Source of the DNA: an uncultured bacterium | GTDB taxonomy: Bacteria > Patescibacteriota > Minisyncoccia > UBA6257 > GWB1-50-10 | DNA: 64,000 bases | Assembly: GCA_963768835.1 (NCBI GenBank) | Contig: CAVYJB010000002.1 | Coordinates: 459,082 to 523,081 of the forward strand | Direction of reading: 5' to 3' | In this document: one piece after another, positions 8,205-48,896 of the stretch | Position numbering within the stretch: position 1 is the stretch's first letter | How the letters are laid out: every line of letters starts with the position of its first letter | Translations under genes and position numbers: made by a program | Notes under the pieces: generated by a model | What the model was told of the DNA's origin: nothing | The model's input: only the letters and a program-made list of their open reading frames with translations | The model's database searches: none

Positions 8205-8230
8205 AATAGAGGGAAGAAACGGACGAACCC

Positions 8231-9567: not shown

Positions 9568-9612
9568 CCTCTTGCGCTCCGCCCCTCGCTCAAGGTAGGG
9601 TGGAGATACGAT

Positions 9613-10446: not shown

Positions 10447-10546
10447 GGCGTACCAGGCGCCTGGACATTTTTCCTCGATCGCCGGATTCGTGTATAATAG
10501 TCAGGCAAAGGTCGACCACGACCCTATCACTTCAGAATAGAAATCT

Positions 10547-10876: not shown

Positions 10877-10954
10877 AAGGCTGACCATGGGATGGCTCTC
10901 GAGAAAGAGGCCCGTTCGGGATTCCGAGCGGGTCTCTTGTTGTATAATAGGATC

Positions 10955-11608: not shown

Positions 11609-11630
11609 TCGCTGGCTCGTTATCTCTATC

Positions 11631-12026
11631 ATGAAGATCGCTCAGGAATTCAAAGAGTTCGCGATGCGGGGGAGTGTGGTGGACCTAGCTGTCGGCGTCA
11701 TCATCGGCGCGGCTTTCGGGAAGATTGTTTCCTCGCTCGTCGCAGATGTTCTTATGCCACCGCTGGGAGTCCTTTTAGGTGGTATCAACTTTGCAGACTA
11801 TCAGTGGACTCTCCGGTCGGCAGTCGGTGCGTCACCTGCGGTGACGCTGAACTACGGTCTCTTTATCCAGAACATCGTAGATTTTCTTATCGTGGCGTTT
11901 GTAATCTTCCTTGTGGTGAAAGGGGTCAACAGGTTGCGGAAAGAAAAACCAGCTGTCCCTCCGGAGCCCGCACCAGAAGTGAAGCTTCTCACGGAGATTC
12001 GTGATGCGCTAAAAGAGCGGAAGTAG
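11631..12026 (+). CDS. mscL: large-conductance mechanosensitive channel
   Basis: [46 protein letters not shown] matches the MscL TM1 and periplasmic loop consensus. Confidence 0.85.
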
Positions 12027-12061
12027 TGGTCCTAAGGAATCTTGTGGGGTAGAATAAAAGC

Positions 12062-12469
12062 ATGGACGACAAAGCGAAACAGAATGAGGATGTTTGGCAG
12101 AAGATGCTCACGCCGGAGCAATACAATGTGTGCCGGCTCGGCGGGACCGAGCCTCCAGGGAGTGGGAAATACACCTACACAAAGGAGAATGGGATGTATA
12201 TCTGTGTAGCCTGCGGACAGCCACTTTTCTCCTCGGAGACGAAATTCGATTCCAGCACGGGGTGGCCGAGCTTCTATGATGTCGTGGAGAGGGGGAATGT
12301 AGAACTCAGAGAGGACGCGAGCTACGGCATGCGTCGTACTGAAGTGCGCTGTCGGAACTGCGGCTCGCATCTCGGCCATGTTTTCGATGATGGCCCGGCC
12401 CCGACTGGGAAACGCTATTGTATCAATTCCGTTGCCTTGGATTTTAAAAAGAAAGATGGGAAGGCGTAG
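12062..12469 (+). CDS. msrB: peptide-methionine (R)-S-oxide reductase
   Basis: The SelR fold shows two zinc CxxC pairs (CVACGQPLF ... [16 protein letters not shown]) and the catalytic RYCINS motif. Confidence 0.9.
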
Positions 12470-35300: not shown

Positions 35301-38300
35301 ATCACCTACAACACCAATAGTAACATCACTTACGGTACCGTCATCGCCACGAGCACCAACGACCCGACGAACGGCGGCGATACCGTCATCCCAGAGACCT
35401 ACAACGATCAGAATCCATTCTCCGTCGCTTCAGCCATCGGTTTGGGTCAGGACGGTGAGTGGGATTTCTCGCTCGTAAGCAGTAGCTCTATGCCCACGAG
35501 CACCGCTTTTTGCTTCCGAGCGGTCAATACCAGCGGCCAGCTCCTTACGACTACGACCGCTACGCAGATCCCTGAGATCGATACCCCGAATATATCAGCG
35601 GGAAGTACGATCAGTGGCTACCTTTACTCGGACGAGGGGGTGACCCTCACGACCTCCACGGTGAAGATTGCGGTGAACGGGTCCACACAATTTTCCTCGA
35701 CGACGATCGCGAGCTGGTACAACCCCTCCTGGCTATATCGGAAGCTCATCACTATCACGGGTTCCTTGGTCTCGGGCACGCAGACGGGCTTCCCGGTGCT
35801 TGTGAACACCACGGATCCGAACTGGGCCTACACCGGTAATGGCGGGCACATGGGTTCCTCGACGGGATATGACGCGCTCTTTACCGCTGCGGACGGCGTG
35901 ACGAAGCTGAACCATGAGGTGGAGTCCTACAATGCCACGTCGGGCCAGCTCGTCGCGTGGGTGCAGATACCCCAACTCACGGCGAGCACCACCTTCTATA
36001 TCTACTACGGCAACGCGGGGGCCAGCAACCAGCAGAACGCGACCTCCACCTGGGATGTAAACTATGCGGGCGTCTGGCACATGAATGAGGTCGGAGCGGC
36101 GACCACGACCGTGCCCGATTCAACAGGAAACAGAAACACAGGGACAAAGCTTTCCGCGTCCCAACCTTTCGCAACCTCCGGTCCCATTGCGGGCGCCCTC
36201 GCGTTTGACGGAAGCGCGGCGAAGATCACCACACCGTTCACGGCGACAACAACGAGCTTTACGCTTTCGGGATGGGTCTACTCAACGAGTACCGCGACCA
36301 CCGGAACGGTCAATAACGCGATGGCAGGATCGGTAAACAGCTCACGAGGTTTCGCGTTCTGGCCGGAGTGGGGCAACCCGGCGCCGCCGCAACAAGATAA
36401 CCTCATTGTCTACGGCAGTTCCGGGACCGTATCTCTGCAGACCTCCGACAACTTCAACCGGGGCGGCTGGTTCTATTTTGTGGCAACATATGCGAGCCCC
36501 AATGCCACGGTATACAAGAATGGAGCGTTCCTGAACTCGCAGAGTGTCGCTGTCGGTACCACTACAAACGTAGGATTCGACATCGGGGATCGTGGGGATG
36601 GTGCCCATTTCTGGCCCGGTGACATCGCCGAGGTACGACTCTCGACTATCGCACGCTCGGCGGCCTGGATCCTCACCGAGTACAACAACCAGTCTGCGCC
36701 GGGCGTGTTCTACACAGTGGGTCCCGAGCTGGCTTCAGGTGAATACTCATTTACTCTAGGTTCCTCCCTGAACACTGGCGATGTCATCACGGTCTGGATG
36801 GGGAACGGCATCTCGGCGCGCACGGGCGCGACTGTTACCCGCTGGTCAAACTCCCTCTCCACGCTTTCAGGCCTCAACATCTACCAACAGCACCTTATCG
36901 CGCGCCACGAGGACACAGGACCCCTCACCGACGCGAATATTCTCCTCTGCTCGAAGACTGCGGGGAGCGCCTGCTCGGACCCCGACCTCCACTTTGCGGC
37001 AGGCACGAACCCCAGTGACCTCACGGTGGACCCCGACTGGGGCCTCTATCTCTGGGGGGGGAAAACCTTCTCGCCGAACGGGACAGTCACGCTTTCTGCG
37101 GGCACCACCTCTTCGACCTACGGCGGCACTTTGAAGTGGGGGTCCTCGTCCACGATGCTCGCGGCGAGCACCTCCACGCTCTCCATTGGGGGGAGCTGGC
37201 TGAATGCTGTGGATGGGCTATTCTTCTCGTCCTCAGGTCAGGTCACCTTTTTTACAGGGAGTTCCTCACCAGTCTACAGCGTGGATAGCACTGGCAATAG
37301 TTTCCAGAATATCGTGTTTGGGTCTTCGACGCCCGCGACCAGCACTGCCTGGTACAGCGCCTCCTGGCTCCACCGTAAACTTATCAATATAACCGGTTCC
37401 CTCGTATCCGGCACACAAACAAACTTCCCGGTCCTTGTCTCGACCGTCGATCCGAACTTGGCTTACACCGGGAACGGCGGCCACGTGGGGACCTCCACAG
37501 GGAACGATATCCTTTTCACCGCCGCGGACGGCGTGACGAAGCTGAACCACGAGATCGAATCCTACACTTCCTCGACTGGGGCGCTTGTGGCCTGGGTTCA
37601 GGTGCCACAGCTTACCTCGACTACAAGTCTCTATATTTATTACGGCAACGCGGGGGCCAGCAACCAGCAAAACGCGACCTCCACCTGGGACCCCACTTTC
37701 TTGGGGGTTTGGCACTTAGGGGATTCTGCAAGCTCTGCCACCTCGATCGACTCCACCGGGAATGGGTATAGTGCAAAGAAGCAGGCGGTGAACAATCCGG
37801 CCGCGATTTCGACTGGCACTATTGATGGAGCTTCCTCCTTCAATGGCTCAACATCCTTCGCCTCCACATCCAAGCCGCTGAATTTGAATTCCACCACCAC
37901 AATCAGCGCTTGGGTTAAGCGCTACACAACTGGGGCCATCCAGCTCTACTTCACGAAGACAGATGCGCATGCTGGCAACTCCGACTACGCCGTCGGCTTC
38001 GAGGGCCCAGGGGCCAATGTCGACAAGTTCCAGTTTTGGGACAGCAATCTCAATCCCGGAACTCTCTATGCAGCACGTACGATTACCGATACCAATTGGC
38101 ACCAGCTTGTAGTAGTCACTGACTTCCATTGGTATGCAAGTTTCTATGTTGATGGCGCATTCGTGAACACAGGGACATACGATGGGAATAATAGCCAAAC
38201 CATCCATTCTTATCCCACTCACATCGGAGACGCGTTCGGGAACGCTCCTGATCTTTATTGGATGAATGGCGCGGTCGACGAACTTCGCGTCGCTTCCTCC

Positions 38301-41300
38301 CCCCGCTCGGCGGCCTGGATTCTCACCGAGTTTAACAATGAGTCCTCACCAGGCACCTTCTTAACGGTGAAGCCGGAGGATAGCTACCCGGGCGGTGTTT
38401 GGAACATCACGAGTGATTTAAATGCGAGCGGGAATCTTGCGGTTGTGACCGGGACGGTGGTGGGCTCCGCGAACGTCCTCATCGCGGGTGGGAACGCTAC
38501 GAGCAGCGGCGGCACGCTTAGCTTCGCAGGCGGTACCTTCACGCTTGCGCACCCCGGTTTCTACGGTGGTCTCCAGCCGTGGAGTCTCTACAACTTCATA
38601 GCTAGCTCCGGGGCCTCCGGCATCACCACAACCACTGGCACGGGCACCACAACGGTTACGGGCGCCTTCACTATCTGGCCGGGCTCCGGGTTCAACGCCG
38701 CGACCTCCACCTTTGTCCTTACAGCGATCTCCGGGGCGCCTTTCGTTCCCCAGGGCACCTTCCTGCCCGCCACCTCGACGGTCCTCTTCACGGGTGACGG
38801 CAACATTACAATCGCCTCCACGACCTACTATAATCTCACCCTCAGCCCAACCTTGACGGCAAGCCGAGCTTATAGTTTGGGAGGGCCGGGCATTATTCAG
38901 TTCATCCAAGCCACCTCGACGGTCACAACTACCACGGCGGCCTCTGTCACTTTCCCTTCGCCGGTAGGGGCAGGCGACACCATTATCGGCAGCATGATCG
39001 AGCCATCCGGTAGTACGGTCCAAGTCGGTGACACGCGGGGGAATTCCTACACCATTGCCGTTGGATCCTTCCCCGATCCCTTGGGCGACCTGATCTATAT
39101 GTTCTATGCCCCGAATGTGGCGGGCGGGCCAACCACGGTTATTGCCACGAGCTCTCTTGCCTCCCCGGCCTTCAATGAGCTCAACATTACCGAGTATAGC
39201 GGCCTCAATACCGTGAGCTCGTTGGACGCCATCTCCACTGGCACCAGCGTCGGCGGTGGTGTGAACCCCACAACTGCCACCACGACCATCACCTCTGCGA
39301 AGGAGCTCATCTGGGCCTACGGCCCGGATCTCGGTAGCGGCCTCAGTGCGGGGGCGAGTTTCACACCTCGGCTCGTCACGCAGGGCGATACCGTCGAAGA
39401 CAAAATCGTGTCCACTGCGGGATCCTACAGCGCCTACATGATTGCCACCACTACGAGCAACTGGGCCATCGTGATGGGGACTTTTAAGACGGGCCCAGGA
39501 TCCGGTATCCCTGGTGCGACAACAATCAACAACAATTTCCTTATCAACCCCACCTCCTCGAGTGCTCTGAACCTCGATGTAACTCTTGCCTCCACAACCA
39601 CCGTTCTTGGTGGGACGACCGTAATGAGTGGCGGTTCCTCCACTTCCACCCTCGACACGACGCCCTCAAACTCTTCCCTCACGACCGGGAATCTTACAAT
39701 CCAGGCGGGGGACGGTATGAATGCGAACGGTTCAAACGTGACCTTGACCGGCATCAACTCTCCTCTCGTTAATAACGGCCTCCTTTCCGTCGGCACCTCC
39801 ACCTTCATATACACCGGCGCCGGGGCCACGGTTGTTAACGCAAGCACCACGTACTGGAACCTTACGCTCCAGCCCGTATCCTCAGGCGCCGCTTTCGGGT
39901 ACCAGATGGCAACAGGCACCCCACTCACAGTTTCAAGCACGCTGAATGTGAACGGGTCAGGCGATGAAGGCGCAAACTGGACCCAGGCGACCTCGAGCGC
40001 CGCGTGGGCCGGGCGGAAATCCGAACCCGCCCTCGTCTATCACGGAAAGCTCTGGCTCCTCGGGGGGCAGCTATCGGGGCCTGTGGCGACCTCGAGCGTC
40101 TGGTCCTCCTCGGACGGTGTGAACTGGACCTTTATGGGTTACGCGCCTTGGACTGCGCGCTACTCGGCGGCGGGGCTTGTGTATAAGGACAAGATGTGGA
40201 TCATGGGCGGTACAGACCAATCCGCGGCGCGGAAGAATGATGTCTGGTGGTCCACCGACGGCGTGAACTGGACCCAGGCCACCTCGTCCGCGACCTGGGC
40301 GGCGCGTGAAGCCCCCCGCGCCGTCGTGTTCAAGGGCTACATGTGGATTGTGGGGGGGTACATCGGCTCTGTCACCCATGATGTCTACTATTCGTCGAGC
40401 GGCATCGCATGGGCTACAGCGACGTCGAGCGCGAACTGGTCTATCCGCTACTACAACGCGTTGGTCGTCAAGGACGGGAAGATGTGGGTGTACGGAGGGT
40501 ACGGAGGCGTTGATGACTGTGCGAGCGGTTCCCGCAACGATGTCTGGTGGTCCTCCGACGGCGTGAACTGGACCCAGGCGACTGCAAGCGCTCCCTGGGC
40601 CTGCCGATGGCAGCTTTCCTACGGTGTCTACGACAACAAGCTGTGGGTGGTGGGAGGGTACGATAGCTCGGCCGGCTATAGGACTGATGCTTGGTACTCG
40701 CCGGACGGAGTGAACTGGACAATGGCCACGAGTGGGACTGCAACGAAAACAAATGACACGCCGCTTTTAGCTTTCCAGAACCGCCTCTGGAGAATCGGCG
40801 GCGAAAATGGATCGTATTTGAACAATGTCTGGTACACACCTTCCTCGACCCTCACTGTCACGCTCGGAGCTACCACGACCGTTGCCTCGACGACGAACGT
40901 AAATGCGGGCATCCTCGATGCAACTTCCTTAAACTACCCGCTGACGACCATGAATCTCGCAGTCGGGCCCGGTGGCACCCTCACTGGTCGCGGCTCAGCG
41001 CTCCTCGCGACGGGGGATGTCAGTATCAATGGGTACGGTCGTGACAACGGTGGCATCCTCCAATCTACGACCAACACCCTCACTATCCAGGGCAACTACA
41101 CCCAAACTGGCACCTTCGCAAGCGGCACGACAGGAACCGTTCTCTTCAACGGAAGCGCTCAGCAGGTTCTAGCGGGGGAGATGACGGGCGGGAACGCGTT
41201 CGGCCTCCTCACCTTCGCGAACAACTCCGGAGGCGATCCTTCTTCCACCCCCTCCCTCATCGTTTCCTCGTCGCTCGACGCCGCAACTTCCACCATCACG

Positions 41301-42644
41301 ACTGCGAACGTGAAGGTCCGCTGGACCGCGGGTGCGACAACCACCATCTTCAACGGCGTGAACTGGAACGGACAGGCGAGCACGACGCGCATCGCGTTTC
41401 GAAGTTCGGTCTCGGGCACGCCTTGGGGCCTTATCGTGGAATCAACCTCCTCTGTTTTCAACGTGGACACGAAAGATTCGAATGCTTGCGGCCAAGCTAC
41501 CTCCTCTGCCCCGAACACAGCGAACAGCGCGACGACCATTACGGCGGGCAACGGCACGAGCCTGGACAGCGGGGGGAACTACTGCTGGAGCTTCGCCTCC
41601 TCCACGCAGACCCAATCCATCACGCTCACCCTAGACACCAATACTTTAAATCTCCCGAGCCTGACGCCGGGGGCTCCGGTCAAGGCGACCACGACCGCGA
41701 CCGTTAGTATCACAAACACAGGTGGGAGCGGGTACACCCTCTTTTTCAATCGGATCGCCACGACCTCGACGCTCACAGCTTTGGGAAGTGGCGGCGCCTC
41801 CTCGTCGGGGCCCTTTAATACCGCGACCGTCGTGAACGATGTCACGACCGGCACGATTGCATGGACCAGTCCGGGGAATGCAACGACGAGCGATAACGTG
41901 GTGGCATCGTCCGGCGTCTTCGGCGTCGTGGAGTCGAACTATCTGAAAGCGACAAACTTCGGTTTCTCCATCCCCTCGACCGCCACGGTGACTGGCATCA
42001 AGGTAGAGGTGCGGCGGGAGGATTCGAACTTGAACGCCTATGATGCATCCGTTCGTATTGTGAAGGGCGGGACCATCCAGAACGCGGTTGACGAGGCGAG
42101 TTCGACCGTGTGGCCGGTGTCGATGGCTTACGCCACATACGGTTCCTCCACGGATCTTTGGGGTACCACGTGGGCGCCCTCCGACATCAACGCTTCGAAC
42201 TTCGGTTTCGTGTTGGCGTGCCGGGGGGTCAGCTTCGGGGACACCTGCTGGGTCGACCAGATCCGCATCACGGCTTATTACACGGTCCCCGGTTACACCG
42301 GTGTAGCCACCTTCCCCGACTACGCGGCCTGGGCACCGACCGGCACGACTTGTTCACCGGGAGAGGGGAATGGGACCACAACCCCCAACCGGGCCTTTTC
42401 CTTCCGCGTCCAACAATCCGGCACGAACTCCAATTACTGTACAAACTGGTGGGGAGCAAACGATACCCTAGGCACCGCCATCTACGCTGGTACTCCGACC
42501 TCAACCCAGACCATCATGAATTGTCCTACCTGCAATTCCGGTACCACCGTAACCTACATTCTCTATCAGGCGGACGCTCCGGCGACCCAACCGATCGCTA
42601 GTTATACGGGTCAGGTCACTATCACGGCGCTTGCGAACCCATAA
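29358..42644 (+). CDS. giant (4,428 aa) membrane-anchored multidomain surface protein
   Basis: Uninterrupted 13.3-kb ORF. The N-terminal TM (AIPIFILAAALAIVGTY) is followed by a P/S/T-rich linker.
The Gly-rich domain WTAPTNIYGTTTMEAWGAGGGGGGVNTSNEGGGGGGGGAY resembles PF12810.
Seven tandem ..IALNAASGTMYVAGYD...EWRIEARNLSDGSLIYAT.. units resemble SBBP beta-propeller repeats.
Two DUF2341-like modules (WLYRKLITITGSLVSGTQTGFPVLV...YIYYGNAGASNQQNATSTWD) are each followed by a LamG-like domain.
Six Kelch-like W..DGVNWT repeats follow.
The C-terminal domain ends ...YTGQVTITALANP*, the motif shared with the downstream small proteins. Confidence 0.85.
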   Translation: MTVPKPKTPRTRKPRVPKNPTVQPTPISDVLEGGRRTIYLRERFPRLVQLSRQRFAIPIFILAAALAIVGTYQALFVHADLTTLYPSSCLGGWRYPGNATGKPDIPLDIVPDLNQFTTANSAISDGGESPLFCGSFTGDTLDPAATITHVRLRFSLAAFFGLDAVKRGAAAAAAPAGNAPGDVPLLILDTRPSSTEPSALPEEGSSTPTEESFSTSSTGSTASPQVPSASSGQADSTDTSPTATDTPPTPSAPPVLPPPSDASGTLPSAALRTLAELFFPHAAAQEASASTPSTNPPQADSTSSPEADSIPSIDSGQANPPQAASAPNDETSTSPVLVSPPLPSVPSSTPPTSSTSSGEAPSGSAPPLELSASSTNATGTQNSELVPTSTSSSSPEESPAPSPEPPAPAPADTTSTAFLVVSYTLDGQTWQPLGYVTPDNWQQANFDVPVTSTDDISKLQVSVESVLTADQPPVVYLDGMALEVSYGPPPAPKSLTPEDINKLSRVQVDANKLFRAARHDFRAGETPSFEIDIPSSTDALLSSPSSSVSTSTLDAPGEETVPGASTTPSEGDIPSSSPASGFLDSLRKLAGIPDAAAQTSSSSIQRVEVLDIFNNPVDVQPQVVQNGNQIVINFPAPPRAFRPGRYQLDVEVLVGDTVYASEQDFTWGILALNLDRSIFTPGQTAYLQMAALSDEGDTLCNANLSLSITDPGGTVTHVPVQPGASCGPNNVTDVPDYTAHYSVGNTTGVYTITLENQDTGHTITDTFQVQNSVPFDVERIGATRINPFMSDYRMRFRVTANQGFDGTVQEQLPQGFAVIDPGGGDVAAGDAATILGWEVHLAAGQSIELSYVYRAPRVSPQFYLLGPAQFIHQAGVLDKIVGFLFSNLTGSQPPVVFQEARQWQLAADASNPATIRQEINILDHTFTAGTVATSSMEIVNLNPTQYATGTNTFYFEIVASTTGVVATATLQEAGGLIDATTTIPATATSSTLIRTAFTPNAATTNYIVGLQGLSSGSAYLQAARIVVKEAATNFTNTETQIEIGNYETGKTNTATSSLSKPKYWLYTSSSWDGTKTFYAEVTYQTSASVTTSSIASSSLYTAAGNFTWTAPTNIYGTTTMEAWGAGGGGGGVNTSNEGGGGGGGGAYARVNSSTTPAGTPLAVTVGAAGGAGASSGGTGGVGSTSTIATSTVVAQGGNGGVGNDGAGGTGTTTQSVGDVKFAGGTGSAGASASYSGGGGGGAGSTGAGGSVTATTTAGLGTTVGGGNGGAGRLSSSAGVGNNGNQAGGGGSGGYRGSSTNRAGGSGGPGEAKLTYSLLVTTTTFATTTVSLQEDNGAFGGWTDKLIILAAGVNTTSTRVRAGPFTPTDGRHYRLAFTNATTTRAFNIYNAKIIVDQAGNPTMLEPQYLLANTALGTGTSLQGFQTKWDSTEWSNVSNVYLHEVEATSSATSTIELDTTGGSQVAGSSIANPSNLATSTLTMPASQNFDVKATANYGGIYADRILVDVSSILPVFEQTAYRWYQNANIANLLFGVGGATSSNPSAGDDEANGIALNAASGTMYVAGYDNASGTEWRIEARNLSNGSLIYATNSIPTLNSPEANAIAINAASGTMYVVGSANPVLGNLQWRIEARNLSDGSLIYATTSNLAVGTNIATAIALNAASGTMYVAGYDNSLGGGDLEWRIEARNLSDGSLIYATTSNPTVNTNEATAIALNAASGTMYVAGYDSPSVSEWRIEARNLSNGSLIYATTTAPTAGGDQATSIALNTASGTMYVAGSENSTGKWRIEARNLSDGSLVYRQSLSLTTSDKAKTIALNTALGTMYVAGYDNFAADTEWHIEARNLSDGSQVYGTSSNPTAGLDEANGIALNAASGKMYVAGYDSGGGTEWRIEARNLSDGTLLSTITSLVPGTPLAAQNTSTTLGTVTASSTFRLRLLLKDSVATSTNSKFNLQVASTTVGNCPGNYTGLTYTNVPTSTGYITYNTNSNITYGTVIATSTNDPTNGGDTVIPETYNDQNPFSVASAIGLGQDGEWDFSLVSSSSMPTSTAFCFRAVNTSGQLLTTTTATQIPEIDTPNISAGSTISGYLYSDEGVTLTTSTVKIAVNGSTQFSSTTIASWYNPSWLYRKLITITGSLVSGTQTGFPVLVNTTDPNWAYTGNGGHMGSSTGYDALFTAADGVTKLNHEVESYNATSGQLVAWVQIPQLTASTTFYIYYGNAGASNQQNATSTWDVNYAGVWHMNEVGAATTTVPDSTGNRNTGTKLSASQPFATSGPIAGALAFDGSAAKITTPFTATTTSFTLSGWVYSTSTATTGTVNNAMAGSVNSSRGFAFWPEWGNPAPPQQDNLIVYGSSGTVSLQTSDNFNRGGWFYFVATYASPNATVYKNGAFLNSQSVAVGTTTNVGFDIGDRGDGAHFWPGDIAEVRLSTIARSAAWILTEYNNQSAPGVFYTVGPELASGEYSFTLGSSLNTGDVITVWMGNGISARTGATVTRWSNSLSTLSGLNIYQQHLIARHEDTGPLTDANILLCSKTAGSACSDPDLHFAAGTNPSDLTVDPDWGLYLWGGKTFSPNGTVTLSAGTTSSTYGGTLKWGSSSTMLAASTSTLSIGGSWLNAVDGLFFSSSGQVTFFTGSSSPVYSVDSTGNSFQNIVFGSSTPATSTAWYSASWLHRKLINITGSLVSGTQTNFPVLVSTVDPNLAYTGNGGHVGTSTGNDILFTAADGVTKLNHEIESYTSSTGALVAWVQVPQLTSTTSLYIYYGNAGASNQQNATSTWDPTFLGVWHLGDSASSATSIDSTGNGYSAKKQAVNNPAAISTGTIDGASSFNGSTSFASTSKPLNLNSTTTISAWVKRYTTGAIQLYFTKTDAHAGNSDYAVGFEGPGANVDKFQFWDSNLNPGTLYAARTITDTNWHQLVVVTDFHWYASFYVDGAFVNTGTYDGNNSQTIHSYPTHIGDAFGNAPDLYWMNGAVDELRVASSPRSAAWILTEFNNESSPGTFLTVKPEDSYPGGVWNITSDLNASGNLAVVTGTVVGSANVLIAGGNATSSGGTLSFAGGTFTLAHPGFYGGLQPWSLYNFIASSGASGITTTTGTGTTTVTGAFTIWPGSGFNAATSTFVLTAISGAPFVPQGTFLPATSTVLFTGDGNITIASTTYYNLTLSPTLTASRAYSLGGPGIIQFIQATSTVTTTTAASVTFPSPVGAGDTIIGSMIEPSGSTVQVGDTRGNSYTIAVGSFPDPLGDLIYMFYAPNVAGGPTTVIATSSLASPAFNELNITEYSGLNTVSSLDAISTGTSVGGGVNPTTATTTITSAKELIWAYGPDLGSGLSAGASFTPRLVTQGDTVEDKIVSTAGSYSAYMIATTTSNWAIVMGTFKTGPGSGIPGATTINNNFLINPTSSSALNLDVTLASTTTVLGGTTVMSGGSSTSTLDTTPSNSSLTTGNLTIQAGDGMNANGSNVTLTGINSPLVNNGLLSVGTSTFIYTGAGATVVNASTTYWNLTLQPVSSGAAFGYQMATGTPLTVSSTLNVNGSGDEGANWTQATSSAAWAGRKSEPALVYHGKLWLLGGQLSGPVATSSVWSSSDGVNWTFMGYAPWTARYSAAGLVYKDKMWIMGGTDQSAARKNDVWWSTDGVNWTQATSSATWAAREAPRAVVFKGYMWIVGGYIGSVTHDVYYSSSGIAWATATSSANWSIRYYNALVVKDGKMWVYGGYGGVDDCASGSRNDVWWSSDGVNWTQATASAPWACRWQLSYGVYDNKLWVVGGYDSSAGYRTDAWYSPDGVNWTMATSGTATKTNDTPLLAFQNRLWRIGGENGSYLNNVWYTPSSTLTVTLGATTTVASTTNVNAGILDATSLNYPLTTMNLAVGPGGTLTGRGSALLATGDVSINGYGRDNGGILQSTTNTLTIQGNYTQTGTFASGTTGTVLFNGSAQQVLAGEMTGGNAFGLLTFANNSGGDPSSTPSLIVSSSLDAATSTITTANVKVRWTAGATTTIFNGVNWNGQASTTRIAFRSSVSGTPWGLIVESTSSVFNVDTKDSNACGQATSSAPNTANSATTITAGNGTSLDSGGNYCWSFASSTQTQSITLTLDTNTLNLPSLTPGAPVKATTTATVSITNTGGSGYTLFFNRIATTSTLTALGSGGASSSGPFNTATVVNDVTTGTIAWTSPGNATTSDNVVASSGVFGVVESNYLKATNFGFSIPSTATVTGIKVEVRREDSNLNAYDASVRIVKGGTIQNAVDEASSTVWPVSMAYATYGSSTDLWGTTWAPSDINASNFGFVLACRGVSFGDTCWVDQIRITAYYTVPGYTGVATFPDYAAWAPTGTTCSPGEGNGTTTPNRAFSFRVQQSGTNSNYCTNWWGANDTLGTAIYAGTPTSTQTIMNCPTCNSGTTVTYILYQADAPATQPIASYTGQVTITALANP
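33960..35100 (+). repeat. seven tandem ~156-165-nt coding repeats (beta-propeller SBBP-like) within the giant gene
   Basis: TGGCGCATCGAAGCCCGCAACCT recurs near 34077, 34239, 34404, 34560, 34713, 34868 and 35024. Confidence 0.75.
35710..38380 (+). repeat. internal duplication of a ~1.0-kb DUF2341+LamG-like module (copies at ~35710-36730 and ~37350-38380)
   Basis: WYNPSWLYRKLITITGSLVSGTQTGFPVLVNTTDPNWAYTGNGGHMG...ARSAAWILTEYNN aligns with WYSASWLHRKLINITGSLVSGTQTNFPVLVSTVDPNLAYTGNGGHVG...PRSAAWILTEFNN. Confidence 0.75.
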
Positions 42645-42709
42645 TGATGCTCTGGAGACTACCATCTCCCAATCCTGTGGATAATTTAGCATTCAGAACG
42701 ACTTTGGTA

Positions 42710-42718
42710 TGGTATACT
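42710..42718 (+). promoter_or_regulatory. extended -10 promoter element TGGTATACT upstream of the small WxL-like gene
   Basis: TTTGGTATGGTATACT. The same TGTGGTATACT element recurs upstream of the paralog at 48193-48201. Confidence 0.4.
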
Positions 42719-42798
42719 TATCCAGTAGCGAGGCATTTCCTCTCCAATCACCAAAATTCAAGAAAAGAAAAGGTCGGAACGACAGTTTGTATGAAAAA

Positions 42799-43497
42799 AT
42801 GAGGAATCACATTAATTTAGAGACCGTTATAGGAGGGATTGCGGTTGTAGGCATGGCCGCGTTTATGTTCAGTGGAGTAGCGGGGTCGTTCTGGTCCGTT
42901 TTGGACATCCAGCACGCTTTTGCCGGCACTTCCACTTCGACCAACCAGACCATTAACCTGACCGTGAACCAGGTTATCACGCTTTTTCTTTCCACAACGA
43001 CGCTCACGCTGCCATCCCTCACGCCTGGCATCCCGGTTTCAGGGAATGCATCGGCAACCGTCACGACAAATGCCGACCAGGGTTTCCAGCTTCTCTTCAA
43101 TCGCGTGAATAACCCGACCTCGACCCTAACCTACGGCGCCACCTCGACCTTCCCGGATGCGACGAACACCTGGAACCCGACGTTGTTCGGTGGTGTTGGT
43201 AACGCAACAGACACGACCCGCACAGTGGTTCAGTCGGACCTTTCTTTCCGCGTGGCATCCTCTGGAACCACCGGTTCGCTCCTGAACACTTCGTACTGGG
43301 GTTCGGTTGACACGGACGGTGTTGGGCAGGCGGAGTATGCAGGTTTCCCGACCACAAGTCAGGTCGTTGCTTCGACAAGTACTTATACCGGTGTCTCGCA
43401 GATCATCACCTATAAGGTACGTGCGGACGCTCCGCTGACGCAACGATCCGGTACTTATTCCGGTCAGATTACCATCACAGCGACGGCGCAGCCATAG
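42799..43497 (+). CDS. small secreted WxL-like (SCPU/WxL-like) surface protein, member of a local paralog family
   Basis: Signal anchor followed by AGTSTSTNQTINLTVNQVITLFLSTTTLTLPSLTPGIPVSGNASATVTTNADQGFQL. The C-terminus RSGTYSGQITITATAQP* matches the C-terminus of the giant protein (YTGQVTITALANP*) and of 48226..48896 (YTGQITITATALP*). Start chosen downstream of the promoter element. Confidence 0.6.
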   Translation: MRNHINLETVIGGIAVVGMAAFMFSGVAGSFWSVLDIQHAFAGTSTSTNQTINLTVNQVITLFLSTTTLTLPSLTPGIPVSGNASATVTTNADQGFQLLFNRVNNPTSTLTYGATSTFPDATNTWNPTLFGGVGNATDTTRTVVQSDLSFRVASSGTTGSLLNTSYWGSVDTDGVGQAEYAGFPTTSQVVASTSTYTGVSQIITYKVRADAPLTQRSGTYSGQITITATAQP

Positions 43498-43685
43498 TTT
43501 TACCCCGCTGGGGTTTCTTCTTGGGAAGAGCCTGTGACTCTCTCGACCTCAGCGGGTGCGTCGCCAACCGCTCGTGTAGTTCTCTGTCCCGTTTCTTTGG
43601 TAGATTGACAGAGAGCAAGAGTGGGGCCACAATTTCTCCTGAAGGAGTTCTCCTGCCTGAGGGGAGCGATGCTACCATAAATGTA

Positions 43686-44591
43686 ATGAAGAGGAAAGTA
43701 TTCAGCCTTTCGGTTCTTGTTCTGTCAGTCGTGTTCGGTATGTTGCTTTTTCCATCCGCAGGTTTTGCGCAGGTGGGTATTTCTTTGTTCCCGATTAAGT
43801 TTCGCGTGACGATAAACCCGGGCGATACGTACTCCGACACGGTCACGGTCATGAACCCGAACAGCTTTCCAATTGGTGTCCAGCCAGAGATCGAGAACAT
43901 CGGTGGGGGCGATGAGGGCGCCATTACGCTCATTGCGGGCGATGCGCCCTACGGCCTCATGTCATGGATCCAGATGACCAAGGACCCGTTCACCCTAGCG
44001 CCGAACGAGCGACGCCAGGTACCTTTTAGCATCGTGATTCCCAAAGATGGTGAACCCGGTGGTCACTACGGAGCTATCCTTTTCCGAGCCATCCAACCCA
44101 CGAATGGCACTTCCACTCAAAGTGGTGTAGGAGTCTCGGGACGCGTCGGGAGTGTCATCTTGGTAGAGGTTCCTGGAGCGACCCAAAAGACCGGAGAACT
44201 CTACAATTTTACGGGCCCGTCTTATATGTCTCACGGACCCGTCACGTTCACTTTTCATGTAAAAGACACAGGAAACACTCACTTTGATCCCACTGGTGCG
44301 GTGACAGTGAGCGGATGGTTCATGGCGGACGCGGTGCTTCCTTTTGAGTCGCGCGTCGTCTTCCCGGGGTACTCGCGGACTTTCACGGCCACATGGCCGT
44401 CCCGCTATGCTTTTGGCCCGCTCACAGCAAAGGTGGAGGTACAAATGCCGGATGGAGGTACACAGGTAGCTACCCTGTCCTTCTTCGCGTTTCCATGGCA
44501 GGAAGGCCTTATCGTAGTGGTGGGCCTTTCCGCTCTGTGGTTTGTGGCTCGCTTTTTCAAACGAAAGTTCAAGATCGTGAAGGTTTCCTAG
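43686..44591 (+). CDS. CscA-like (DUF916/DUF3324-like) secreted protein with C-terminal transmembrane anchor
   Basis: Signal peptide (MKRKVFSLSVLVLSVVFGMLLFPSAGFAQ), beta-rich Ig-like domains (FPIKFRVTINPGDTYSDTVTVMNPNSFPIG ... HYGAILFRAIQP ... GRVGSVILVEVPG) and a C-terminal TM plus basic tail (LIVVVGLSALWFVARFFKRKFKIVKVS). This mirrors WxL-interacting proteins of Firmicutes csc clusters. The assignment is inference. Confidence 0.5.
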   Translation: MKRKVFSLSVLVLSVVFGMLLFPSAGFAQVGISLFPIKFRVTINPGDTYSDTVTVMNPNSFPIGVQPEIENIGGGDEGAITLIAGDAPYGLMSWIQMTKDPFTLAPNERRQVPFSIVIPKDGEPGGHYGAILFRAIQPTNGTSTQSGVGVSGRVGSVILVEVPGATQKTGELYNFTGPSYMSHGPVTFTFHVKDTGNTHFDPTGAVTVSGWFMADAVLPFESRVVFPGYSRTFTATWPSRYAFGPLTAKVEVQMPDGGTQVATLSFFAFPWQEGLIVVVGLSALWFVARFFKRKFKIVKVS

Positions 44592-44605
44592 TGCCCTACG
44601 TATGA

Positions 44606-45097
44606 ATGCGTATCTTGCACCCTTTTGCTCGTTCTTTTCTCGCATTTTTTTCTGCGCTCGTTCTTTCGATTGAGTTCCCCGCGCTGCCGATAGCCCGTGC
44701 GCAGATTTTGACGACTTCGAGTTCGCAGACCGTGACTGTTGAGGTCTGCCCCTGCGAGATTCCTCCACCTCCTCCACCGCCCCCCCCACCGCCTCCCAGT
44801 GGAGGCGGTGGGGGTGTTTTCGGCGGCACTCTTCTGTCACCGCTTCCCCCCGCGCCGGCGCGCCCTATACCCTCGAAGCGCATTCTCCGGTCGGTGGATT
44901 TCAACCACGATGGCAAGGTGGACATTATCGACCTCTCCATCCTTCTCTACTACTACAACCGTTTTAGGCCAGGGGTCGACCGTGCGGATGTTGATATCAA
45001 CGGTGATGGGGTCGTGGATCTAACCGATGTCTCTATCTTTCTCTATTATTGGGGCGGCTCCGGCGTCATCGAGGTGGCGAGTGGAACAGGAAATTGA
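44606..45097 (+). CDS. secreted dockerin-domain protein with poly-proline linker
   Basis: Signal peptide, P12 plus G5 linker, then two Ca-binding dockerin repeats (DFNHDGKVDIIDLSILLYYY and DINGDGVVDLTDVSIFLYYW). Confidence 0.6.
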   Translation: MRILHPFARSFLAFFSALVLSIEFPALPIARAQILTTSSSQTVTVEVCPCEIPPPPPPPPPPPPSGGGGGVFGGTLLSPLPPAPARPIPSKRILRSVDFNHDGKVDIIDLSILLYYYNRFRPGVDRADVDINGDGVVDLTDVSIFLYYWGGSGVIEVASGTGN

Positions 45098-45099
45098 CC

Positions 45100-46020
45100 A
45101 TGAGAAAGTTTTTTCCAATATTTATTGGATCCCTCGCGCTCCTTTGTGCGCCCGCTCTCGCGTCTGCGCGAGTAAGTTTCTCGTTCGAAGGATACACGCC
45201 GCCGGGACTTTCCGCCGCGGATTTTGGCGTTCGCATCCTCGTGGATTCAGATGAACCCGTAAATGCCTTTGATCTTATCGTGTCCTACCCAGTGGGGCTT
45301 GCAAAGCTTACCGGTATCGATACCAGCCGCTCCATTGCGGATCTCTGGCAGAGCTCTCTCACACCACCCGATGGGAACCAAGTCCCGCTCGTGGGCGCGG
45401 CTACCAAGCCGTTCATCGGGACCCACGGGGAGTTCGCGACCCTTATCTTTAATGGTCTGCGGGTTGGCTCAAGCACGCTCCATTTTGTCCAGGCGGATGT
45501 CTATCGTGCGGACGGAAAGGGGACGCTGGCCGAGGTGGAGACACAGGATCAGAGCCTTGCGCTCTACGCCGTGCAGGTGGAAACAACCTCCACAGAATCC
45601 GTGAGCGAGGCAAGCGGTGTAGGCCAGGTGCAAAATGGACCCACACCCGCAGGAGCGGGCCCCACTATCGGCGACCTTCGCATTGTGGACAACTCCTTCG
45701 CACCCGGAGAAAAACTTCTCATCTTTACGGTGGGAGAAACTAATGGCGTTCTCCGCCGTACAGCGGTCCGCACCCGTTCTTGGCTTTTTTGGAGCGCTTG
45801 GCAAGAGGCGCGGAACCCCTTTCCTGTTCCATCTGGCGCTTGGGCAGTGGATTTCGCCGCTGTCGACAGCCTTGGGAACGTAGCTGAGCGCGTGTTGTAT
45901 CGTTCCGACATTATATTGGAGAAGGGAGGCCTCGTCCTCGCGGTTATCATTCTCCTTTTGCTCGCTCGATACTATTTTGTGCGGAGGAGAAGAAAGCGCG
46001 CGCTCCAAAGTGTACAATAA
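45100..46020 (+). CDS. cohesin-domain protein with C-terminal transmembrane anchor
   Basis: Signal peptide followed by a cohesin-like beta-sandwich (FSFEGYTPPGLSAADFGVRILVDSDEPVNAFDLIVSYPVGLAKLTGID ... GEFATLIFNGLRVGSSTLHFVQADVY) and a C-terminal TM (LVLAVIILLLLARYYFVRRRRKRA). The ATG at 45100 sits 2 nt after the dockerin gene stop. Confidence 0.55.
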   Translation: MRKFFPIFIGSLALLCAPALASARVSFSFEGYTPPGLSAADFGVRILVDSDEPVNAFDLIVSYPVGLAKLTGIDTSRSIADLWQSSLTPPDGNQVPLVGAATKPFIGTHGEFATLIFNGLRVGSSTLHFVQADVYRADGKGTLAEVETQDQSLALYAVQVETTSTESVSEASGVGQVQNGPTPAGAGPTIGDLRIVDNSFAPGEKLLIFTVGETNGVLRRTAVRTRSWLFWSAWQEARNPFPVPSGAWAVDFAAVDSLGNVAERVLYRSDIILEKGGLVLAVIILLLLARYYFVRRRRKRALQSVQ

Positions 46021-46025
46021 GAAGC

Positions 46026-48137
46026 ATGGTGGGTTCCTTGCACTGTAGGGGGTGGATGCCCCGCACCGCAGCGCTGGCGGTTGTCTTTGCGCTCGCCGGA
46101 TTCACGATGGCGCCTTGCGCGTCCGCACAAAGCGACGTCAGCCCGGCATCGCTCTATGTGAGCCCTTCCACAGGAACCTTCACAGTGGGGAGCACTTTCA
46201 CGGTCTCCTTCTATCTGAACACCGGCGGTCAATCGGTGAACGCGCTTCAGGCAAACGTAATTTTCCCGCCGGACATGCTGCAGGTGGTCTCGCCCACCAC
46301 CGGGACCTCTTTCGTTCAATTCTGGACCTCGCAGCCGAGCTATTCGAACGGGGACGGGACCCTTTCGTTTCAAGGAGCGGTCGCCGCGCCGGGCATTAAT
46401 ACCTCGGCAGGCCTCATTGCCACCGTCACCTTCCGGGTCACGGCTCTGGGGACCGCGGTCATTAAATTTGCAGATAATTCCCGCGTCCTTTTGAACGACG
46501 GCCAGGGAACGAACGTTCTGGGCCAGACGAGCGGGGCTATCTATTCGCTTGCACTGCCGCCGCCTGCCGGTCCGATCGTGACCTCGCCCACAGATCCTGA
46601 CCAACAAAAATGGTACTCGAATTCCGATGTGTCCTTCGAGTGGCAACCGCAGGATGCTGCAGTCACGGGCTACAGCTATATCCTGAGCCATAACCCCTCC
46701 GACATTCCCGACGATATCGCGGAAGGGGACCAGACTTCCGTGTCCTATCCTAATCTCCCCGATGGCATCTATTATTTTCATATCAAGGCGCTCCGGAACG
46801 GAAGCTGGGGAGGCGTCACTTCTTATTCGGTGAAAATCGATGCCACGCCGCCCGCGACGTTTCCCATTGAGGTCTCGCCGGGTACGCGGACGACCCTCAG
46901 GAGTCCTATCATCTCGTTCATCACCACGGACAATCTCTCGGGCATCGACCACTATGAAGTGAAGGTGCTTCCGCTCACGCCCCTCCCGCCGTCCACGGGG
47001 AGCAACGCACCTTCGAGTGCCATCCAGCCTTTCTTCATCGAGGCCACAAGCCCCTATGTGCCGCAGCTCGATCTCGGGTCTTACGACATTATCGTTCGTG
47101 CTGTGGACCGCGCGGGGAATGAAACAGATTCGAAGACCCACATTGATGTGGTGACGCCGCTCTTCGAGGTGGTGAGCGGCGAGGGGCTTCGGGTGAACAA
47201 CACCTTCACCATTCCTTGGCTCGGTCTCTGGGCTACTCTCGCGGCTTTGGTGCCCCTTCTTTCTTATTTCGCATGGAAAGTGCGTCGTTCCCATCGCTTG
47301 ATACAGCTTAAGCTTGCGGAAGGCGCCCTCTCCGATCCGGTGATACGAAAACGTCTCGAGGAATTAAAAGCGAAGCGGCAGGAATATGCCAAGAAGGCGC
47401 TTCTCATATTTTTTGCCTTAGCATTCAGTCTCACGCTCGGGATTGGCTCGGTCCGCGCGGCCGCGACCTCCTCCATTTCTACCATTTCGCCGCCTCTCGT
47501 CACGCTCTATGGAAACAATATTTCAGACGCGGAGCTTCTCTACATCGGTGGGAAGTCCGAAGAGCTCGGTGCCACGGTCGAAGTCTATCTCCAGAACACC
47601 CACACGGGCGAGACGCTCTCTGAGGAGGCGGTGGTGGATCCCCAAGGCGAATGGTTCTACTCGTACCCCAAATTCCTCCAGGCAGGGAAGTATCTCCTTT
47701 GGACCCAGGTCAAGGCAGGCGACCAATTCTCGCCGCCGAGCCCGCAGCTCGAGGTGAACGTCGAGCCCACCGCGTTCCAGTTCGGCGCTTCCCGTGTGAG
47801 TTATGAACTTATTTATCTTGCGATCTCCGTCCTCCTCGCGCTTGTGATCCTCGGGTTCGTCAGTTTCATTCTCTACCACTTCGCTCAAGGGCGGCGGAAG
47901 CGCGCGCTCCTCGAGCGGGAGCTCCAGGAGGCGGAGGAGTCTATCCGGCGGGGGTTCGCCGTGCTCCGGCGCGACATTGAAGCGGAACTCGAGGTTATCC
48001 ACCGCGCAAAACTGCAGGGGGAACTTGCTATCGACGAGCGGGTACGTGAAGAAAAGCTTATCCGTGACCTCGACCTCGTACGGCGCTACATCGGGAAGGA
48101 GGTTTGGGATCTTGAGCGGTTCCGGCACATAGAGTAA
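46026..48137 (+). CDS. multi-pass membrane protein with N-terminal cohesin domain, Ig/Fn3-like domain and coiled coils
   Basis: The cohesin signature LYVSPSTGTFTVGSTFTVSFYLNTGGQSVNALQANVIFPPDMLQVVSP ... GLIATVTFRVTALGTAVIKFADNSRVL is followed by a beta-sandwich domain and three predicted TM helices separated by charged coiled-coil segments. Confidence 0.55.
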   Translation: MVGSLHCRGWMPRTAALAVVFALAGFTMAPCASAQSDVSPASLYVSPSTGTFTVGSTFTVSFYLNTGGQSVNALQANVIFPPDMLQVVSPTTGTSFVQFWTSQPSYSNGDGTLSFQGAVAAPGINTSAGLIATVTFRVTALGTAVIKFADNSRVLLNDGQGTNVLGQTSGAIYSLALPPPAGPIVTSPTDPDQQKWYSNSDVSFEWQPQDAAVTGYSYILSHNPSDIPDDIAEGDQTSVSYPNLPDGIYYFHIKALRNGSWGGVTSYSVKIDATPPATFPIEVSPGTRTTLRSPIISFITTDNLSGIDHYEVKVLPLTPLPPSTGSNAPSSAIQPFFIEATSPYVPQLDLGSYDIIVRAVDRAGNETDSKTHIDVVTPLFEVVSGEGLRVNNTFTIPWLGLWATLAALVPLLSYFAWKVRRSHRLIQLKLAEGALSDPVIRKRLEELKAKRQEYAKKALLIFFALAFSLTLGIGSVRAAATSSISTISPPLVTLYGNNISDAELLYIGGKSEELGATVEVYLQNTHTGETLSEEAVVDPQGEWFYSYPKFLQAGKYLLWTQVKAGDQFSPPSPQLEVNVEPTAFQFGASRVSYELIYLAISVLLALVILGFVSFILYHFAQGRRKRALLERELQEAEESIRRGFAVLRRDIEAELEVIHRAKLQGELAIDERVREEKLIRDLDLVRRYIGKEVWDLERFRHIE

Positions 48138-48192
48138 AGGTTTCGGAGCTTGGGAATTATCCACCGTCGGGGGTCCTTTGGGTACCCGATTG

Positions 48193-48201
48193 TGGTATAC
48201 T
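48193..48201 (+). promoter_or_regulatory. extended -10 promoter element TGGTATACT upstream of the WxL-like paralog
   Basis: TTGTGGTATACTCTAGG. Identical core to 42710-42718. Confidence 0.4.
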
Positions 48202-48225
48202 CTAGGTATAAATTCTCTTTCTGGT

Positions 48226-48896
48226 ATGCATAAGAGATTCGAGATTGGAACGGTTGTTATGGGATGTCTTCTCCTCGGAGGGATGAGCTTCCTTTTCTTC
48301 GGAGGTGGCTTTTTGGTATCTCTTTTTGCGCCAAACGTCCAAGCTGGTACTTCTACTTCTACCAATCAGACGGTGAGCGTCACCGTGAACCAGACTATTA
48401 CGCTCACGCTTGCTTCCACGACGCTTACGCTCCCGACTCTCACGCCCGGTACTCCGGTCTCGGCGATGTCGTCAGCAACCGTCGTGACAAATGCCGACCA
48501 GGGCTTCCAACTTTCTTCAGCCGCGTGAACAACCCGACCTCGACCCTAATCTACGGCGCCACCTCCACCTTCCCGGATGCGGTCGCGTTCGACGGGACGA
48601 CCAATACGACGACCGACACGACCGCAATCGGCGCGAACCTTCATTTCCGCGTGGCGTCCTCGGGGACACCAGGCGGCCTTTACAGCTCGAGTCTCTGGGG
48701 ACCGAACGACTCGGACGGGATTGGGGAACGCGGAGTACTCGGGTTTTCCGACTACAAGCAAAGTCGTCGCCTCGACGAGCACCTACGCTGGTGTCTCGGA
48801 GACCATCACGTACAAGGGCGTGCGAACGCGCCAGGCACGCAGCGGTCCGGTAACTATACCGGCCAGATTACGATTACCGCGACGGCGCTACCGTAG
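48226..48896 (+). pseudogene. WxL-like small secreted protein paralog interrupted by three apparent 1-nt frameshifts
   Basis: Matches ORF 42799..43497 across three reading frames: MHKRFEIG...NADQGFQL in frame A to 48528, RVNNPTSTLIYGATSTFPDA... in frame B, and a middle AEYSGFPTTSKVVASTSTYAGVSETITYK segment in frame C. It returns to ...GNYTGQITITATALP*. One frameshift maps to a 1-nt deletion in CTTCTCTTC>CTTTCTTC. Confidence 0.6.

Follow-up and report, generated by a model that had tools for sequence, protein, structure and literature searches.

The C-terminal domain and its carriers

The window analysed here is a stretch of 64,000 nucleotides (nt) of contig CAVYJB010000002.1 (assembly GCA_963768835.1; positions 459,082 to 523,081 of the forward strand), which belongs to an uncultured bacterium of the lineage Patescibacteriota, Minisyncoccia, UBA6257, GWB1-50-10. 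It holds a cassette of six genes (29358..48137) encoding a large protein, a small protein, a chaperone-like protein, a dockerin protein and two cohesin membrane proteins, followed by a frame-broken second copy of the small gene; the flanks carry MnmA and EF-P upstream and AspRS downstream. All cassette features given below lie on the forward strand. The initial annotation had described a C-terminal signature shared by the giant first protein and two small paralogs, which was suggested to mark an anchoring or donor-strand domain. This motif is the last strand of a beta-sandwich, pilin-type domain of ~170 amino acids (aa), and it could be confirmed that it tags a whole conserved domain common to the giant protein and its mini versions.

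The giant secreted protein (29358..42644; 4428 aa), proposed here as a pilus tip adhesin, was delimited from its open reading frame (ORF) and translation, and ends in ...ASYTGQVTITALANP. It consisted, in order, of an N-terminal signal anchor, a Ser/Thr/Pro-rich region, MG2, Gly_rich_2, repeats of ~45 aa, two DUF2341 + Laminin_G_3 units, Kelch repeats and the C-terminal pilin-type domain. Pfam matches were obtained for Laminin_G_3 (2.5e-22), DUF2341 (4.6e-17), Kelch_1 (1.1e-8), Gly_rich_2 (1.8e-7) and MG2 (4e-6). About eight of the ~45-aa repeats stand in tandem at approximately aa 1560–1900 (…ASGTMYVAGYD…EWRIEARNLSDGSLIY…), in addition to a Gly-rich domain, and the two DUF2341 + Laminin_G_3 units are near duplicates. 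The G+C content across the giant gene was 0.58–0.63, above that of most of the remaining window (about 0.52–0.59).

The C-terminal domain of the giant protein matched the family hidden Markov model (HMM) with an E value of 2.3e-33 in an hmmsearch run with the --nobias option, which was needed since the full-length protein is lost to the HMMER bias filter. The domain falls into two parts, aa 4082–~4146 and aa 4315–4428. The first piece (41601..41795, beginning with STQTQSITLTLDTNTLNLPSLTPGAPVKATTTATVSITNTGGSGYTLFFNR...) aligned to profile positions 41–122 with an independent E value of 4.1e-9, and the second (42300..42641) aligned to positions 102–211 with an independent E value of 1.9e-31, reaching the last residue; the signature strand ASYTGQVTITALANP occupies 42597..42641. 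The gap between the HMM pieces (aa 4147–4314, 41796..42299) corresponds to ~168 aa that are nested in one of the loops of this domain; the insert contains …GTIAWTSPGNATTSDN…FGFSIPSTATVTGIKVEVRRED…CWVDQIRITAYYT and had no Pfam or NCBIfam match. Such split matches were rare, being found in 3 of the 150 best representatives. The domain of the giant begins at the strand QSITLTL, and a comparison of domain starts did not reveal any QTINLTV-like donor strand before it.

The small stand-alone subunit, copy B (42799..43497; 232 aa), was listed as an ORF of 42709..43497, of which the start at 42799 is most likely the real one according to the gene caller and the start of the homologs. It ends in ...RSGTYSGQITITATAQP and is composed of a signal peptide (aa 1–42), an N-terminal extension (aa 43–58) and the pilin-type domain (aa 59–232); the signal peptide cleavage site, after AFA and before G, was read by eye. 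The proposed donor strand corresponds to the extension GTSTSTNQTINLTVNQ (42925..42972). In the small proteins, the segment that follows the predicted cleavage reads TSTSTxQTINLTVNQ, a donor-strand-like pattern of alternating hydrophobic residues, and it is among their best-conserved segments: across 35 homologs, T51 and V56 are invariant, while T46, Q50, I52, N53 and T55 are conserved in at least 90%. The strongly conserved QTINLTV strand is present in the small proteins but absent from the giant, and by analogy with known pilins it is likely the strand that is donated.

The second small subunit, copy C (48226..48896), was recognized by three-frame translation and by DNA alignment to copy B. 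It has the layout of copy B, with a signal peptide, an NQTVSVTVNQ strand, the domain and the C-terminus ...RSGNYTGQITITATALP, and is otherwise well preserved, sharing 72% nt identity with copy B. The N-terminal part is read in the same frame as ORF 48178..48528 and the C-terminal part, including ...RSGNYTGQITITATALP, in that of ORF 48264..48896, while the middle piece returns to the first frame. The family HMM matched in three separate frames. The alignment placed single-base indels at about 48514 (-1), 48723 (+1) and 48818 (-1). No second small copy stands at this position in 11 related loci. Copy C is either a pseudogene or the product of a local consensus error between paralogs, given that the adjacent 13.3-kb giant ORF is free of frameshifts. 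The signature reported for three proteins could therefore be upheld for the giant and copy B, but the third, 'ORF 48226..48896', is not an open frame. In both intact carriers, no transmembrane (TM) segment follows the motif, as had been stated. The upstream segment reported together with the motif is likewise present in both (QxITLxL..TLxLPSLTPGxPV...ATV..TN..GFxLxFNR), but in the giant it stands ~280 aa before the motif because the ~168-aa insert splits the domain.

A search with the small protein retrieved 36 close relatives with 42–56% identity from metagenome bins of Paceibacterota and Minisyncoccia, and none of these 36 carried a Pfam domain. A profile of close homologs, searched against 1.84 billion proteins, yielded 353 clusters at E ≤ 1e-3 and 194 at E ≤ 1e-10, clusters being counted as 50% identity representatives. 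Such an HMM search had been put forward in the initial annotation, and it recovered hundreds of relatives from independent metagenomes. In 179 of 179 proteins the domain ended 0–4 residues from the C-terminus, and 134 of these ended in Pro. The domain either stands alone, in proteins of ~215 aa, or closes longer proteins, the longest being the 4428-aa giant; among the relatives, the carriers extend from stand-alone proteins of ~200 aa to a length of 4200 aa. Over the broad family, the last strand follows the consensus Y-R-L-D-x-P-x-T-Q-x-x-G-x-Y-x-G-x-I-T-Y-T-A-x-x-N-P, with an invariant W, within a WWG motif, upstream of it. In the profile search, the median profile start was 9 in small proteins, i.e., from the signal peptide on, compared to 36.5 in large ones.

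The domain is a real and widespread family that is always C-terminal. Chance resemblance between Thr-rich, low-complexity sequences, or a set of paralogs limited to this genome, would fit the very high Thr/Ser content of these proteins and the loss of the full-length giant to the bias filter. Against such a reading stand the hundreds of relatives with E values down to 1e-82, the invariant W, Y, G and P positions and the conserved synteny; it was ruled out by the number of relatives, their E values and the synteny, and its probability is negligible. The word 'new' in the initial annotation was an overstatement, since the Pam pilus of the Candidate Phyla Radiation (CPR) had already been presented in a 2026 preprint (10.64898/2026.03.03.709456) and as the NCBIfam models NF058581 and NF058579 (June 2026).

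The surrounding cassette

The gene at 43686..44591 encodes a DUF916/WxLIP-type protein of 301 aa, proposed here as a membrane-anchored PapD-like chaperone analogous to PamC and PamD of the Pam pilus. Its AlphaFold2 (AF2) model (predicted local distance difference test, pLDDT, 89.6) showed a signal peptide, two immunoglobulin-like (Ig-like) beta-sandwich domains and a C-terminal TM helix; an operon-encoded, putative PapD/FimC-like chaperone with a C-terminal TM helix is thus found in the window. The partner protein is homologous to DUF916/WxLIP. It matched the Pfam family WxLIP_PGBD (DUF916) with 24 bits, 31 of 32 homologs matched the same family (best E 3.3e-10), some of them being named 'DUF916 domain-containing protein' by NCBI, and the best structural match was E. 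faecium WxLIP, followed by PapD-type pilus chaperones. No Pfam match to DUF3324 could be found in this protein, although it does have a second Ig-like domain and the TM helix. The initial annotation had raised the question of whether a CscA-like membrane protein always accompanies the motif, and a CscA/DUF916-like membrane protein co-occurred with the domain in 14 of 14 distinct loci.

The chaperone-like profile also detected DUF916 proteins of a Deinococcus plasmid (111 bits), Arthrobacter (76) and Curtobacterium (52), and the DUF916 proteins of Listeria and Bacillus only marginally. In Curtobacterium, the gene directly upstream of the DUF916 gene is annotated 'WxL domain-containing protein', and its Arthrobacter equivalent matched the Pfam WxL family (PF13731) with E 5.5e-4. 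Because the accessory protein matches the DUF916 family, the CPR cassette is tied to the WxL clusters of Gram-positive bacteria. On the plasmid of Deinococcus sp. NW-56 (5941..8397 of that locus), the DUF916-like gene stands beside a 190-aa protein ending in …GGGYLFDMTFTALALP, which is nearly the CPR signature, and is also flanked by a 292-aa protein ending in …LTYTLTSNTTGFATGN. The chaperone-like match and these flanking proteins suggest that the same system occurs in Deinococcota. True WxL-DUF916 clusters were observed on the conjugative plasmids pXO1 of B. anthracis (342..7639 of the locus) and pLM5578 of Listeria (3123..10740), where they adjoin CpaB/CpaF/VirB11-type genes, in Listeria also with an adjacent thioester-domain adhesin. 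Their location on conjugative plasmids beside such genes hints at a mating or contact role.

The dockerin protein (44606..45097; 163 aa; Pfam Dockerin_1, 1.4e-8) consists of a signal peptide, the N-terminal strand SSSQTVTVEV, a poly-Pro/poly-Gly linker and a type I dockerin; its QTVTVEV strand is encoded at 44726..44746. The protein carries a run of 13 Pro followed by Gly5, and a spurious 114-aa ORF (44596..44940) is read on the complementary strand. The protein is far shorter than its orthologs (~400 aa, with fn3), which keep an alternating strand just after the signal peptide (AQTV..L.L.V.VV.LP.AP), and the SSSQTVTVEV strand of the window is close to the NQTVSVTV of copy C. The next gene (45100..46020) encodes a cohesin-like protein of 306 aa with a signal peptide and a C-terminal TM helix, a proposed dock for the dockerin. 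It had no direct Pfam match; it resembles the N-terminal cohesin region of the following gene and is kept in related loci. That following gene (46026..48137) encodes a membrane protein of 703 aa with Cohesin (3.4e-8), Y_Y_Y (4.3e-6) and Big_13 (7.4e-6) domains, and is the last cassette gene in the related loci too. As in the cellulosome, the genes for a type I dockerin protein and for membrane proteins with cohesins stand together; here, however, no glycoside hydrolases are found, and the modules stand in a pilus-like cassette with a hypothetical link to the fibre. To our knowledge, the fixing of a fibre to the cell by a cohesin–dockerin pair has not been described before.

The gene order was conserved in 11 distinct related loci, i.e., GTDB representative genomes (Paceibacterota, Minisyncoccia, Jorgensenbacteria) that were located with the close alignment. 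In all 11, a large protein carrying the C-terminal domain came first, followed by a small protein of full length and then by a DUF916-like protein; the dockerin gene followed at the next position in 10, and cohesin-bearing membrane proteins were present in all 11. In the related loci, the 'large' proteins of 440–500 aa carry a conserved QYPQATL strand before the domain. Two more distant loci varied the scheme, one with three tandem small paralogs and two chaperone-like genes and the other with a strand-less member of 234 aa and two chaperone-like genes, and such variations are typical of pilus operons. In the former type of arrangement, observed at 8262..12383 of locus L023, the three tandem small subunits all start with STATINATV.ETMTL and are followed by two chaperone-like genes, like PamC and PamD; the giant protein upstream of them (over 3000 aa, with RCC1/WD40 repeats) is without the C-terminal domain. 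Among the housekeeping genes upstream of the window cassette, a VirD4/TrwB-like coupling protein (24255..26180; TrwB_AAD_bind, 1.1e-12) was also found, which may be part of a patescibacterial type IV secretion system.

Predicted fold and relation to known pili

The AF2 model of the small protein was a beta-sandwich (pLDDT 71.6) in which residues 43–58 were unstructured in the monomer. The motif formed a beta-strand (residues 224–230), and the last three 10-residue blocks had mean pLDDT values of 84–88. The best structural matches of the subunit were CsuA/B, the pilin domains of FimH and PapG, CupE and CfaB, and the fold was likened to the donor-strand-exchange pilins Csu, Fim, CupE and TasA. 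The resemblance to Csu/SCPU pilins noted at the outset therefore held for the predicted fold, which is nearest to Csu/SCPU/Fim pilins. A Foldseek search against PDB gave nothing significant (best E 0.012; CfaB, TasA, PapG pilin domain and CS17 were listed), and the structural scores are modest and, taken alone, would fit many Ig-like folds. By sequence, neither the close nor the broad profile matched a PDB copy that was without the Pam structures.

Pfam and NCBIfam scans of the small protein and the giant C-terminus gave no informative match. Family-wide scans were conducted on 55 diverse members, in which DUF4402 (PF14352) was the only recurrent Pfam match (10 members, best E 0.002, colinear to the C-terminus); none reached the gathering score, the best being 19.2 bits against a cutoff of 25.2, and no mention of DUF4402 was found in the literature search. 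SCPU (PF05229) had no match among the family members.

In common with chaperone-usher pili (Csu/CupE, Fim/Pap), the subunit carries an N-terminal strand of alternating hydrophobic residues, the residues of the last strand alternate as in SCPU, and an alignment of ~170 residues was obtained between the chaperone-like protein and CfaA, SafB, YadV and CsuC. In contrast to those systems, there is no outer membrane here and the chaperone is membrane-anchored, the subunits are larger (~175 aa mature) with a WWG-containing middle region, and all sequence matches are sub-threshold. Pfam and NCBIfam scans did not reveal any usher family among the cassette genes, and the related loci show the same six genes. 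Chaperone-free donor-strand fibres (TasA, the archaeal cannulae CanA/CanX, DUF1102 tubes and the TasA-like TLP) have no dedicated chaperone gene, whereas a chaperone-like gene stood beside the subunit in every locus examined here.

The closest published system is described from cryo-electron microscopy structures of the PamA and PamB filaments of Ca. Mycosynbacter amalyticus (10.64898/2026.03.03.709456). According to that preprint, PamA and PamB have an N-terminal beta-sandwich domain, a linker donor strand and a C-terminal domain; PamT, reduced to the acceptor domain, is assigned to the tip; the chaperones PamC and PamD resemble FimC/PapD and end in a TM helix; and the RbmA-like PamR, which combines an N-terminal strand and two fibronectin type III (FnIII) domains with a C-terminal TM helix, would stop the growth of the fibre and anchor it. 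The system has no usher, was reported mainly in Saccharimonadia and Microgenomatia, and DUF916, WxL, cohesin and dockerin are not mentioned in the preprint (10.64898/2026.03.03.709456).

In NCBIfam release 20, the model NF058581 (CPR_Pam_pilin_C, 'Pam pilus system pilin subunit') matched 28 of the 55 members with a best score of 35.4 bits (E 1e-8), and NF058579 (PamT) matched 5. The NF058581 alignments were colinear over profile positions 3–146 of 148, extending from just after the N-terminal extension to the last residue. Member P0096, which gave the best NF058581 match (35 bits), also matched, with E 9e-24, a profile made of only the close homologs of the window protein. The link between the window and Pam is transitive, as the window copies themselves are unmatched while relatives such as P0096 match both profiles; by sequence comparison, each step is strong.

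The organization agrees with Pam in several respects. An acceptor-type domain stands at the extreme C-terminus in all 179 proteins and is predicted as a beta-sandwich with pilin-type top matches, and the giant joins many N-terminal domains to a domain without a donor-like strand and would be the strand-less subunit at the tip. Putative donor-strand exchange, PapD-like two-domain chaperones with a C-terminal TM helix, the absence of an usher and a CPR host are shared as well, and the published parts list of a donor-less tip, TM-anchored PapD-like chaperones and a strand-bearing terminator is the same. In one related locus (L003, 15701..20615), the F-type ATP synthase operon comes directly after the cassette; the preprint describes such a neighbourhood for pam operons, but it is not seen in the window. 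In contrast to Pam, the polymerizing subunit here would consist of one domain preceded, at the mature N-terminus, by the donor strand, the tip would be a multidomain adhesin of 4428 aa whose pilin domain encloses another domain, and the lineage is Paceibacterota/Minisyncoccia. No RbmA-like PamR gene was found in the cassette, which has the dockerin protein (fn3 in orthologs) and the cohesin-TM proteins instead.

Proposed donor-strand exchange and its alternatives

The locus 29358..48896 is probably a Paceibacterota version of the Pam-type, chaperone-assisted donor-strand-exchange pilus, in which the signature would be the C-terminal strand of a truncated Ig-like pilin domain. The donor-strand mechanism suspected in the initial annotation is the best-supported reading, but by analogy with chaperone-usher and Pam pili the conserved C-terminal strand is probably not the donated one; it is probably the pilin's own last strand, lining the acceptor groove. 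By the same analogy, the 232-aa small protein would be the polymerizing subunit: after removal of the signal peptide, its QTINLTV strand would enter the groove of the preceding subunit, beside the C-terminal strand Y-x-G-x-I-T-I-T-A of the latter. The giant, which has the acceptor domain and lacks the donor strand, could stand only at the distal tip, where it would expose lectin-like, Kelch and repeat domains towards a host cell. At the membrane, the DUF916 protein would cap the groove of freshly exported subunits and pass them on, as proposed for PamC and PamD. More speculatively, the dockerin protein, with a donor strand and no acceptor domain, would end growth and fasten the base of the fibre to the two cohesin membrane proteins, as a split PamR. 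Such a strand-only dockerin terminator is suggested by sequences that are short and rich in Thr and Val.

Several results weigh against this proposal. The curated cutoff of NF058581 (55 bits) was reached by no family member, and the window copies, i.e., the small protein and the giant C-terminus, did not match that model even at E ≤ 10. The locus is outside NF058581, as delimited by the NCBI cutoff, and outside Pfam WxL. The two-domain subunit layout of Pam is not seen, the small subunit being a signal peptide, a 16-aa extension and the domain. The chaperone-like family matched none of the NCBIfam Pam models, and only weak 'choice-of-anchor' matches were obtained. Furthermore, the 440–500-aa 'large' proteins of related loci may be PamA-like two-domain pilins and not tips, in view of their QYPQATL strand.

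The main rival is a WxL-type display complex, in which a divergent WxL-like module would bind the DUF916 (WxLIP) membrane protein and/or peptidoglycan and so keep the giant and small proteins on the surface by non-covalent contacts, one to one and without polymerization. A WxL cluster comprises a small WxL protein, a large WxL protein and a WxLIP (DUF916-DUF3324-TM) in Bacillota and Actinomycetota (PMC9772566, PMC10599100), and WxL proteins are described as peptidoglycan anchors, not fibres (PMC9772566, PMC10599100). The partner in the window is a true DUF916 relative by sequence and structure, and the association of small and large proteins bearing a C-terminal domain with a DUF916-TM protein would fit the published definition of such a cluster (Hassan et al. 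2023) if the domain were accepted as WxL-like: DUF916 is present, DUF3324 is without a Pfam match, and the two or three domain-bearing genes count only on that condition. AF2 modelling predicted a DUF916 strand to insert into WxL (PMC10599100). The three-part grammar and the invariably C-terminal domain are shared, and the family consensus reads GWxLxV at the place of WxL motif 1. The terminal register Y-x-x-x-(I/L)-T-(aromatic/I)-x-x-x-x-x-P occurs as in B. anthracis pXO1, Listeria and Pontibacillus; true WxL proteins end in YESKLTYSIVTGP (B. anthracis pXO1), YTSTVTWSLVSGP (B. cereus) and YRSTIQWVLSAGP (Pontibacillus), in the same register as YSGQITITATAQP. In small WxL proteins, too, an additional N-terminal strand of alternating residues precedes the first strand of the domain. 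The likeness to WxL domains drawn in the initial annotation thus extends to the C-terminal register, but PF13731 was matched by none of the 55 members, even at E ≤ 10. The family HMM did not match nine true WxL domains with filters off (--max), and the true WxL proteins did not match NF058581. An hhalign comparison of the family with the nine-sequence true-WxL alignment scored 30.4 (P 6.5e-4), above shuffled (maximum 17) and reversed (10.9) controls; this test is non-discriminating, since the control of the family against the DUF916-like family scored higher, at 35.8. Against a single Arthrobacter WxL-like protein and the Deinococcus neighbour, hhalign gave E 0.064 and 0.0062, respectively. 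With no PF13731 or HMM match and an hhalign score no better than the control, homology of the C-terminal domain to WxL is not supported.

Other features also separate the two systems. The window copies read GFQL and GYTL at motif 1 and are without Trp in either motif; the pair of Trp-x-Leu motifs with Asp at W1-8 and Arg at W1-6 was not seen, the second motif being I-T-I-T-A, with T-T-N in place of Asp/Arg. The second chaperone domain is unmatched by the DUF3324 Pfam HMM, the order here is large-small-DUF916 compared to small-DUF916-large in Bacillus and Listeria, and no LPXTG protein is present here. A display complex would leave unexplained the extreme conservation of an N-terminal strand that, in the window family, only the small proteins carry, and on balance it is rather unlikely. 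The two readings may be compatible, as strand exchange could also be how WxL clusters work, and WxL-like display may be the same mechanism from another angle; the literature search found no paper that ties WxL to strand exchange. A C-terminal sorting or processing signal for a dedicated transpeptidase or protease, in the fashion of LPXTG or PEP-CTERM, would suit the extreme C-terminal position, the near-fixed Pro (134 of 179) and the occurrence in proteins of very different size. It was rejected and is very improbable, as no hydrophobic segment or charged tail follows the motif, conservation spans the whole ~170-aa domain and not a short tag, no sortase-like or exosortase-like gene is present in the cassette, and the motif is predicted as a structured beta-strand (residues 224–230).

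Members of the CPR/Patescibacteria are thought to live attached to host cells. If the pilus interpretation is true, the Pam pilus would be extended to Paceibacterota, where public records label these proteins 'hypothetical'. It would also offer a sequence rule, in which the acceptor domain only denotes a tip, strand plus domain a shaft subunit and strand only a terminator, and this rule would let very large, variable adhesins be spotted as pilus tips from sequence alone. The cohesin–dockerin pair suggests a way of fixing the fibre to the cell. A wider proposal, which we consider possible but doubtful, is that the DUF916/WxLIP proteins of WxL clusters (Enterococcus, Listeria, Lactobacillus, B. 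anthracis pXO1, Actinobacteria) and the Pam-type chaperones of CPR form one ancient family of membrane-anchored PapD-like chaperones. In such a fibre system common to single-membrane bacteria, WxL proteins would be the subunits and tip adhesins of fibres built by donor-strand exchange without an usher, with the Paceibacterota fibre having a 4428-aa tip and a dockerin–cohesin anchor. The DUF916/WxLIP homology makes the mechanism of the enterococcal, listerial and lactobacillal WxL clusters testable.

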